Position numbers and translations under genes: made by a program
The notes under the pieces: generated by a model
Seen by the model: the letters and a program-made list of their open reading frames with translations, nothing else
The model's database searches: none
What the model was told of the DNA's origin: nothing
In this document: in pieces, positions 50,242 through 52,516 of the stretch
Numbering within the stretch: position 1 is the stretch's first letter
Layout: each line of letters starts with the position of its first letter
DNA from: Escherichia coli
GTDB taxonomy: Bacteria; Pseudomonadota; Gammaproteobacteria; Enterobacterales; Enterobacteriaceae
Direction: 5' to 3' (one strand)
Assembly (NCBI RefSeq): GCF_044324875.1
Contig: NZ_CP172185.1
Length of the DNA: 64,000 nt

Positions 50242-51242
50242 ACCGCCTCCCGTTGTTGACGATATTTCGCCAGCGCTGTGGCATAGCGGTTGAAATCAAG
50301 CTGATTTACCGCATCCAGCTCCGCCTTTAACGCAGGATCGATAGCGTTAATGCCATGCAACGCGCCGCAGATTGCCGTCGCCATAGCACCGATGGTGTCT
50401 GTATCGCCGCCAAGGTTAGCGCACAGGACGGCGCAACGGTTCGGGTCGGTTTGTGCCAGTTCAACCAGCGCAATGGCGCACGGAACGGACTCAATAGTGC
50501 TGGTACCTGCGCCAACGACCTGGTAAAGCTGTTCGCTGGCGGATTCAGTGCCGTCGGCATTGCGCACAATTTTCAGCGCAATCTCCAGCCGCGCCGCCAG
50601 TGAGGCGCTGAACGTGGTCGTGCGTTTTTGCTGTGCATGTTGCGCAATTGAAGGCAGTGAATCAACAATCGCTGACCAGCTTTCTCCGTCAATGGCACGA
50701 GAAATCGCCCATGCGATGACTACCGCACCTGCAACTGCCAGATCGGATTTATGGGTCGGGCTCGACGCCAGCGCCACATCATCAATAAAGGAATCAACAT
50801 CACGCGCCGGAAGCAAACAACCTAATGGCGAGACGCGCATCGCTGCGCCGTTGGTCACGCCGTTGTTTTCCAGTTCAGCAACGGGTTTACCGTCGCGAAT
50901 GGCGTTGAGAGCAATCTTCGAGGTCGGACCTAGTACGTTTTTGTTAAAGGCATCGAAACGCAGCGCCCAGTCGAGAATATTACGCCCAATCAGATCCGGA
51001 TCGATCTTGCCTTTACGTTCCAGTAACGCATCCGCCAGACACAGCGCCATCGAGGTATCGTCGGTGAATTCGGCGCGGTTAAAATAACAGGCCGCGTTAT
51101 TCTCCTTTGGTCCAGGCAGAAAATGGTCAATCCAGCCAAAGTGTGCTTTAACGCGGCTGCGTGGCCAAAGCTCGGAGGGCATCCCCATCGCATCCCCTAA
51201 CGCCTGCCCATAAAGAGCACCGAGAATACGTTCTGTTTTCAT
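50238..51242 (-). CDS. yegU: ADP-ribosylglycohydrolase-family protein YegU
   Basis: 334 aa; overlaps yegV start. Confidence 0.8.
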   Translation of the reverse strand: MKTERILGALYGQALGDAMGMPSELWPRSRVKAHFGWIDHFLPGPKENNAACYFNRAEFTDDTSMALCLADALLERKGKIDPDLIGRNILDWALRFDAFNKNVLGPTSKIALNAIRDGKPVAELENNGVTNGAAMRVSPLGCLLPARDVDSFIDDVALASSPTHKSDLAVAGAVVIAWAISRAIDGESWSAIVDSLPSIAQHAQQKRTTTFSASLAARLEIALKIVRNADGTESASEQLYQVVGAGTSTIESVPCAIALVELAQTDPNRCAVLCANLGGDTDTIGAMATAICGALHGINAIDPALKAELDAVNQLDFNRYATALAKYRQQREAV

Positions 51243-52516
51243 TTAACTTCCCCTTGTGTCAACGCAATATCGCGATCATCGACCTTGATAGCCGTAATTT
51301 CGTTGTCGGATTCGCGGAAAAAAATCATGAACAGCACGGCGATAATGGCAATCATCACCGCGCCAAAAGTCCACATCCCGGACCAGTTGAAAGTCAGTCC
51401 GTTTACCGGTTCCTGATAAGCGAACATCTTTTCCATCATCACACCGCCAAGACGATAGCCGAGCAAACTGCCGAAGCCCTGGCAGCAGAGTGTGATCAGC
51501 CCCTGCGCGGCGGTACGCATATGCACGGGGGCTTTTTTATCGACATAGATGTAAGCGGTAACGTAGTAAAAATCGTAACTTACGCCGTGCAGCAAAATGC
51601 CGAGGAACAGTAACGCGTAGGTGAAATATTCATCCGCACTACCGTAAATAAAGAAGCCATAGCGGATCGCAGCGGTGACCAGACCAAGTAATAATACCTT
51701 TTTGATACCAAAGCGTTTGGTGAAAAACGGCAATGCCAGCATAAAGAAGATTTCAGAGAACTGGCCGAGCGTCATCCAGCCAGTGGCGTTTTTCATACCG
51801 ACTTCGGTCAGATAACCGTTGGCAAAGATGTAATAGAACGCCAGTGGCATCGCAAACAGGAATGAACAGAAGAAAAAGACGAGGAAGTTTTTATCGCGCA
51901 GCAGGATCAGCGCATCCAGGCCGAGCATGACTTTAATGTCCATTTTGCCGGTGCTTTTTGGCGGCGTGTCGGGCAGGAAAAACGCAAACACACCGAGCAG
52001 AGCAGAACTTCAGGCGGTAATCAGCAGCGGGATGTTAGTCGGAGAGATATCGGCATAACCCAGCATTTGCGGCAAAAATCCACATGCAAGACCGGAGGCA
52101 ATCCAGCCGATAGTGCCCATCACACGAATGCGTGGGAAATCACGCTCCACATCCGGCACGTTGGCAAAAGCGATACTGTTAGTCAGCGCAATGGTCGGCA
52201 TATAGGTTAGCGAGTAGGCCAGCAGTAACGGGAAGAACCCGGCAAAAGTGGTCTGTTGCGCAGCGAAATACATCAACGCCGCACCAGCGAACATCAATAC
52301 CGCCAGCACTTTCTGCGCCGAGAAAAAGCGGTCAGTGATGGAGCCAACCAGAATTGGCGACAGGATCGCCGCAATGGCGGTACAGGCATACGACCAGCCA
52401 ATTTCTCCGGCACTAAAACCGCTTTTACTTAACCACAACCACAATGGCACAAACCACGCGCCCCAGATAAACCATTCAACAAACATCATGAACGACAGCT
52501 TTGCTGTTGTTTTCAT
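51239..52516 (-). pseudogene. yegT: Nucleoside transporter YegT (MFS) with an in-frame TGA at 52010-52012
   Basis: Two ORFs (168 aa and 250 aa) in the same frame separated by one TGA plus six sense codons (SSALLG). Confidence 0.75.

Follow-up and report, generated by a model that had tools for sequence, protein, structure and literature searches.

A premature UGA codon in yegT of an Escherichia coli clone, very probably the mark of a recent nonsense pseudogene

The YegT protein of Escherichia coli is an MFS transporter of the nucleoside:H+ symporter family. Its structure displays the MFS fold with 12 TM helices, TM1-6 forming the N-domain and TM7-12 the C-domain, and two residues have been proposed for proton coupling, Asp315 in the GXXXD motif of TM10 and Glu255 in TM8 (PMC11979927). 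In a stretch of 64,000 nucleotides from an E. coli chromosome (NCBI RefSeq assembly GCF_044324875.1, contig NZ_CP172185.1), hereafter called the window, yegT appears as two open reading frames (ORFs) separated by a TGA codon. The initial annotation of the locus had proposed that it may be a pseudogene, a sequencing error or a site of readthrough. In this work we asked which of these readings the locus supports, and whether the two ORFs might instead code for the two parts of a split transporter.

The full-length footprint of yegT spans positions 51239..52516 on the minus strand. An ATG at 52516 starts an ORF of 168 codons (52010..52516), which is ended by the TGA at 52012-52010. Six sense codons (SSALLG) then lead to a GTG at 51991, from which a remnant ORF of 250 codons, counted from this first GTG in a listing of the ORFs of the same frame, runs to 51239 (51239..51991). 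All these features lie on the minus strand; read without a change of frame, 52516..51239 comprises 425 sense codons and one internal stop, codon 169. The two ORFs, their shared frame, the TGA at 52010-52012, the intervening SSALLG and a product of about 425 aa on readthrough had all been described by the initial annotation, and our translation reproduced them exactly. The GTG had been presented as an annotated restart; it is just the first possible start of a mechanically listed ORF, and no annotation lies behind it.

Among 5,426 complete RefSeq E. coli genomes, the best match to the yegT of the window was that of E. coli XJ6.1. The alignment to this annotated yegT covers 1278 of 1278 nucleotides without gaps, by which the earlier gene call was borne out, and shows two differences. 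The first, G505T, corresponds to a G to T change at 52012 and turns the GGA codon of Gly169 into a premature opal stop (TGA, 52010..52012, minus strand); it is the sole non-synonymous difference between the two genes. The second, C241T, is a synonymous change in Leu81 (CTG to TTG, position 52276, minus strand) that is private to the window, which has T where its relatives have C. At the DNA level the gene is 99.8% identical to that of XJ6.1 and 97.7% identical to K-12 b2098, with one internal stop. The codon of K-12 MG1655 aligned with codon 169 is GGA, within the sequence accgccGGAagttct; the K-12 context ITAGSSALLG and the change from GGA to TGA, both put forward in the initial annotation, were thus right.

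Using a cut-off of at least 95% identity over at least 80% of the length, yegT was matched in 5,421 of the 5,426 complete genomes, where it is annotated as "nucleoside permease". The intact counterpart aligns with the YegT of PDB entry 8ZOJ over residues 1-425 (E = 1.4e-281) and is identical to it bar a few substitutions, NupG being a more distant relative (E = 9e-51). The order of the genes, fbaB, yegT-yegU-yegV, yegW and yegX, is that of K-12. The gene of the window is therefore an ortholog of yegT both by its full-length sequence and by its synteny (fbaB / yegTUV / yegW), and it has the same locus, length and frame as K-12 YegT (b2098, UniProt P76417, PDB 8ZOJ; NHS family, MFS). The GXXXD motif and its Glu partner are present as well, although downstream of the stop: Glu255 and GVSYD at 311-315 (Gly311-Asp315) are encoded in the read-through frame. 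Unlike in K-12, codon 169 is TGA and not GGA, and the native start yields residues 1-168 only. The ORF for 12 TM helices is interrupted by this stop, which makes the locus a pseudogene of the NHS family and not a functional member of it.

The lesion could be an error of sequencing or assembly in the source genome, the real gene being intact. Such an error would fit the single base that separates the gene from its intact orthologs, and also the failure to find the T allele among the 5,426 complete RefSeq genomes with the probe described below. Against it, the identical 168-aa product (SRB00689.1, E. coli) has been called on 136 contigs, in 146 index blocks covering NCBI and Logan. The TGA is present in the Logan assembly of SRR31139369, which differs from the window at 1 position in 8,507 nt, and in the NCBI assembly GCA_044083135.1, which differs at 1 position in 7,005 nt. 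In both cases the lone difference is the private synonymous SNP at 52276, where the window has T and where C is found in SRR31139369, GCA_044083135.1, GCA_014589615.1 and one further sequence (L001). Since the first two assemblies do not carry the private SNP, they are independent of the record of the window and not copies of it. For the assembly of SRR31139369, Pfam Nuc_H_symport matches are on record for both yegT fragments. The lesion is thus real in independent data, and the sequencing error offered by the initial annotation is refuted by the TGA in assemblies one base away from the window and by the 136 contigs; we give it virtually no chance.

The spread of the TGA allele was assessed using a 55-mer probe centred on the T, for which every 28-mer seed was forced to include this T. 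The T allele gave 0 matches in the 5,426 complete RefSeq E. coli genomes and the G-allele 55-mer matched 4,961 of them; the probe is blind in about 465 genomes, in which flanking SNPs block the 28-mer seeding, so that the absence of the T allele beyond the clone is not absolute. An exact 31-mer around the TGA had no match in the GTDB species-representative genomes. The assembly GCA_014589615.1 differs from the window at 5 positions in 7,005 nt, has GGA at codon 169 and a called product of 425 aa. The presence of GGA in so close a relative indicates that the mutation is recent and arose inside one clone.

The exact YegU, YegV, YehA, ThiM and YegX proteins of the window were found on approximately 190-226 contigs each, all labelled E. 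coli, and the longest contig with its exact neighbour proteins is a 5.75-Mb chromosome. Among the 25 longest contigs with the exact YegU, one (GCA_014589615.1) has an intact yegT and 24 are reported without a yegT product, these 24 being GCA_044083135.1 and 23 contigs grouped with it whose sequences are not displayed; the absence of a product is consistent with annotation as a pseudogene. The clone seems to be absent from the complete-genome collection, and the 24-kb stretch at 40000-64000 has a mean identity of 96.8-96.9% to complete RefSeq E. coli genomes, the best among the matches listed. Close relatives thus have intact orthologs, and the lesion is derived. The pseudogene proposed by the initial annotation is supported, as a single substitution disables a gene without other defects, of which essentially all other E. 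coli have an intact copy; we conclude with high confidence that yegT is here a recent, clone-specific nonsense pseudogene of an ordinary kind.

As a recent nonsense pseudogene, the gene would owe its state to a single G-to-T transversion, which converted the GGA of Gly169 to TGA in the ancestor of a single E. coli clone, from which the strain of the window inherited it. Translation of the annotated frame ends after 168 residues, within the sixth hydrophobic segment. By hydropathy, residue 169 falls within this segment (162-180, IPLLITAGSSALLGVFAFF), which directly precedes the charged central loop PDTPPKSTGK, starting near Pro182, and which we infer to be TM6. The ORF that is left covers hydrophobic segments 1-5 and the start of segment 6, and the stop takes away 257 of the 425 residues (60%), including the whole C-terminal six-helix domain. 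Judged from the sequence, the 168-aa fragment should be unable to transport, and a loss of this extent would abolish YegT function. UGA is misread in E. coli at a low basal level, which leaves room for a trace of full-length YegT; through misreading by tRNA-Trp, no more than traces of a full-length G169W protein would be made.

More than a trace would be made if the UGA were a recoding site, for selenocysteine or for programmed readthrough, from which a full-length functional YegT is obtained. Of the stop codons, UGA is the leakiest in E. coli; the gene has one in-frame UGA, and the reading frame beyond it is perfectly kept, although the youth of the mutation accounts for this intact frame. 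Codon 169 has not been selected as UGA: at least 4,961 genomes have GGA there, as does GCA_014589615.1, at 5 differences in 7 kb, and UGA is not conserved among the orthologs (0 of the 5,426 complete genomes with the above probe). From the UGA onward, the first 76 nt have a minimum free energy of -20.6 kcal/mol, compared with a mean of -19.0 for shuffled sequences (z -0.57), and 49 of 200 shuffles fold equally well or better, which shows no specific RNA structure directly 3' of the UGA. A search of Rfam found no family anywhere in yegT, the matches in the window being limited to two OrzO-P, CyaR and the thiM TPP riboswitch. A SECIS or other readthrough element was rejected in view of this ordinary downstream fold and the lack of an Rfam match. 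In addition, misreading by tRNA-Trp would place a bulky Trp instead of Gly in a membrane helix. The E. coli formate dehydrogenase genes fdhF, fdnG and fdoG, in which UGA codes for selenocysteine, likewise have an in-frame UGA; that of yegT differs from theirs in being unconserved, in having no significantly stable hairpin and in replacing an ancestral Gly and not Cys/Sec. The readthrough site envisaged at the outset is not supported by these data, and we consider recoding highly unlikely.

The other way to keep a transporter would be to make it in two pieces, the 168-aa N-fragment and a reinitiated C-fragment being produced apart and assembling in the membrane. The two ORFs are in the same frame and separated by 18 nt, and reinitiation soon after a nonsense codon is known to occur in E. 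coli. Engineered N6/C6 halves of LacY can assemble in the membrane in this way, and in the assembly of SRR31139369 the gene caller predicted a downstream product of 229 aa starting at ATG197. LacY divided inside a helix is, however, not known to complement, and the break in yegT lies inside the hydrophobic segment 162-180 and not in the central loop that begins near Pro182. Moreover, Shine-Dalgarno (SD) pairing is weak or lacking at the candidate restarts, with anti-SD pairing energies of -0.5 kcal/mol at GTG176, -1.7 at ATG192 and -3.0 at ATG197, compared with -5.7 for the native start and -7.6 for that of yegU. In view of its lack of SD pairing (-0.5 kcal/mol), GTG176 was discarded as a functional restart. 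The exact 250-aa product is absent from the public protein collection searched, and the split of yegT has not been kept in any other lineage covered by the above probe. The locus thus has neither a break between domains nor a ribosome-binding site belonging to the second ORF. The 250-aa ORF would be made, if ever, by inefficient reinitiation, and is probably untranslated or translated weakly. We regard a split transporter as extremely improbable, and both the recoding and the split-gene readings are without positive support.

The nonsense pseudogene lies at the head of an operon of which the remaining genes are intact. The yegU gene (50238..51242, minus strand), of the ADP-ribosylglycohydrolase family, has no internal stops, and yegV (49276..50241, minus strand), which codes for a PfkB-family sugar kinase, is the last gene of yegTUV. 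The GntR-family repressor gene yegW / ggaR (48556..49302, plus strand) is intact as well; its product GgaR (YegW) has yegTUV as its single target, an operon for which a link to ADP-glucose and glycogen has been described (PMC10819704). Since both yegU and yegV have been preserved, there is no general decay of the operon. The start codon of yegU, an ATG, shares bases with the stop of yegT (ATGA) and is preceded by a strong Shine-Dalgarno sequence of its own (-7.6 kcal/mol). The untranslated portion of the yegT mRNA, about 770 nt, may lower the expression of yegU and yegV, through lost translational coupling and Rho-dependent polarity. In a systematic assay, uptake of gemcitabine, xanthosine, uridine and cytidine by YegT was not detected (PMC11241209), which makes a small cost plausible, and the loss of YegT thus plausibly costs the clone little. 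It is possible but unlikely that in this prophage-rich clone the loss of YegT is a selected marker and not neutral decay, or that low UGA readthrough keeps a trickle of the G169W protein. If the loss was selected, it might reflect a changed flux through the GgaR-controlled yegTUV pathway tied to ADP-glucose and glycogen.

Other disabled alleles of yegT are on record. Frameshifted YegT products come from other E. coli (202, 254 and 188 aa) and, in one case, from Salmonella, and truncating yegT mutations have been reported in Salmonella Typhi (PMC9241588). A probe for the A5 to A4 frameshift of yegT, an allele met in the cluster of YegT proteins, gave 7 matches in the complete genomes, all of which were synonymous CCA to CCC changes in an intact gene. 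Since this probe matched intact genes only, inactivating yegT alleles are rare in complete genomes, and we do not claim a frequent, recurrent loss. The lesion of the window resembles the yegT truncations of Typhi, and gatC and gatR of K-12, in that a single lesion affects a non-essential accessory gene in one clone while its neighbours are intact. It differs from other enterobacterial pseudogene cases in that G505T occurs in none of the complete RefSeq genomes that the probe could assess. It is thus an ordinary lineage-specific pseudogene of a dispensable transporter, as seen in other enterobacteria, and both the kind of event and the gene are already known. It adds one more sporadic inactivation of yegT, which fits a dispensable YegT without an established substrate. 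The locus should be labelled as a yegT pseudogene (nonsense, Gly169 to opal), neither as two genes nor as a recoding site, and the TGA allele may be used as a SNP marker of one E. coli clone.

The segment as a whole is ordinary E. coli chromosome, approximately 96-98% identical to K-12 gene by gene. Its level of gene disruption is about equal to that of the same region of K-12, where gatR, gatC and yehH have been disrupted; of these, gatR and gatC show no interruption in the window. An IS1 copy (58509-59276, 768 bp, with an InsB-like ORF at 58524-59027) is inserted in gatD and flanked by a 9-bp target duplication, CCGATTTAC, which makes gatD a second disrupted gene of the window beside yegT. 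On the opposite side of the window, the end of a lambdoid prophage (1-11738) adjoins the first 68 nt of mlrA (yehV) at 11739-11806, and mlrA is thus interrupted by the prophage; yehV serves as the site of Stx phages in O157:H7. The prophage genes include a tail-tip J fragment (6-2855), a Lom-like ORF, a collagen-repeat tail fibre (4117-5445), a tail-fibre protein (5461-6036) and a DinI-like ORF (11276-11524). The prophage also contains an IS66-family element (6287-8620, minus strand) with a 512-aa transposase (NF033517, E = 5e-137) and accessory ORFs of 115 and 133 aa. A Shigella-like reductive genome, an idea raised by the IS elements and by the lack of an exact match in the E. coli collection, was not supported: the exact protein matches are all labelled Escherichia coli, and the window has just two IS elements.

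Between these ends, three tandem paralogous ORFs of the yehI / yehH family (1214, 1253 and 1265 aa) are open at 23628-34853 on the minus strand; in the K-12 counterpart yehI alone is intact, accompanied by a yehH pseudogene and a short yehF remnant. Two matches to the Rfam OrzO-P antitoxin sRNA (22190-22265 and 22800-22873, minus strand; 101 and 92 bits), situated between yehL and yehK/yehI, suggest a duplicated zor-orz type I toxin-antitoxin locus. In yehC (39685-39731) a 1-nt insertion relative to K-12 is found just past the start annotated in K-12. This indel raised the suspicion of a frameshift in yehC, but it lies upstream of an in-frame ATG at 39731, presumably Met16 of K-12, which opens an intact ORF of 224 aa; yehC is probably intact, and the insertion a matter of start-site annotation and not the sign of a pseudogene. 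The yehA (42917-43951) and thiM (46036-46824) genes are 85.9% and 91.4% identical to those of K-12, compared with about 96-99% for their neighbours, and seem to be recombined or divergent alleles. Both the TPP riboswitch upstream of thiM (45905-46001, plus strand) and the CyaR sRNA (62965-63050, minus strand) occupy the positions expected from K-12.
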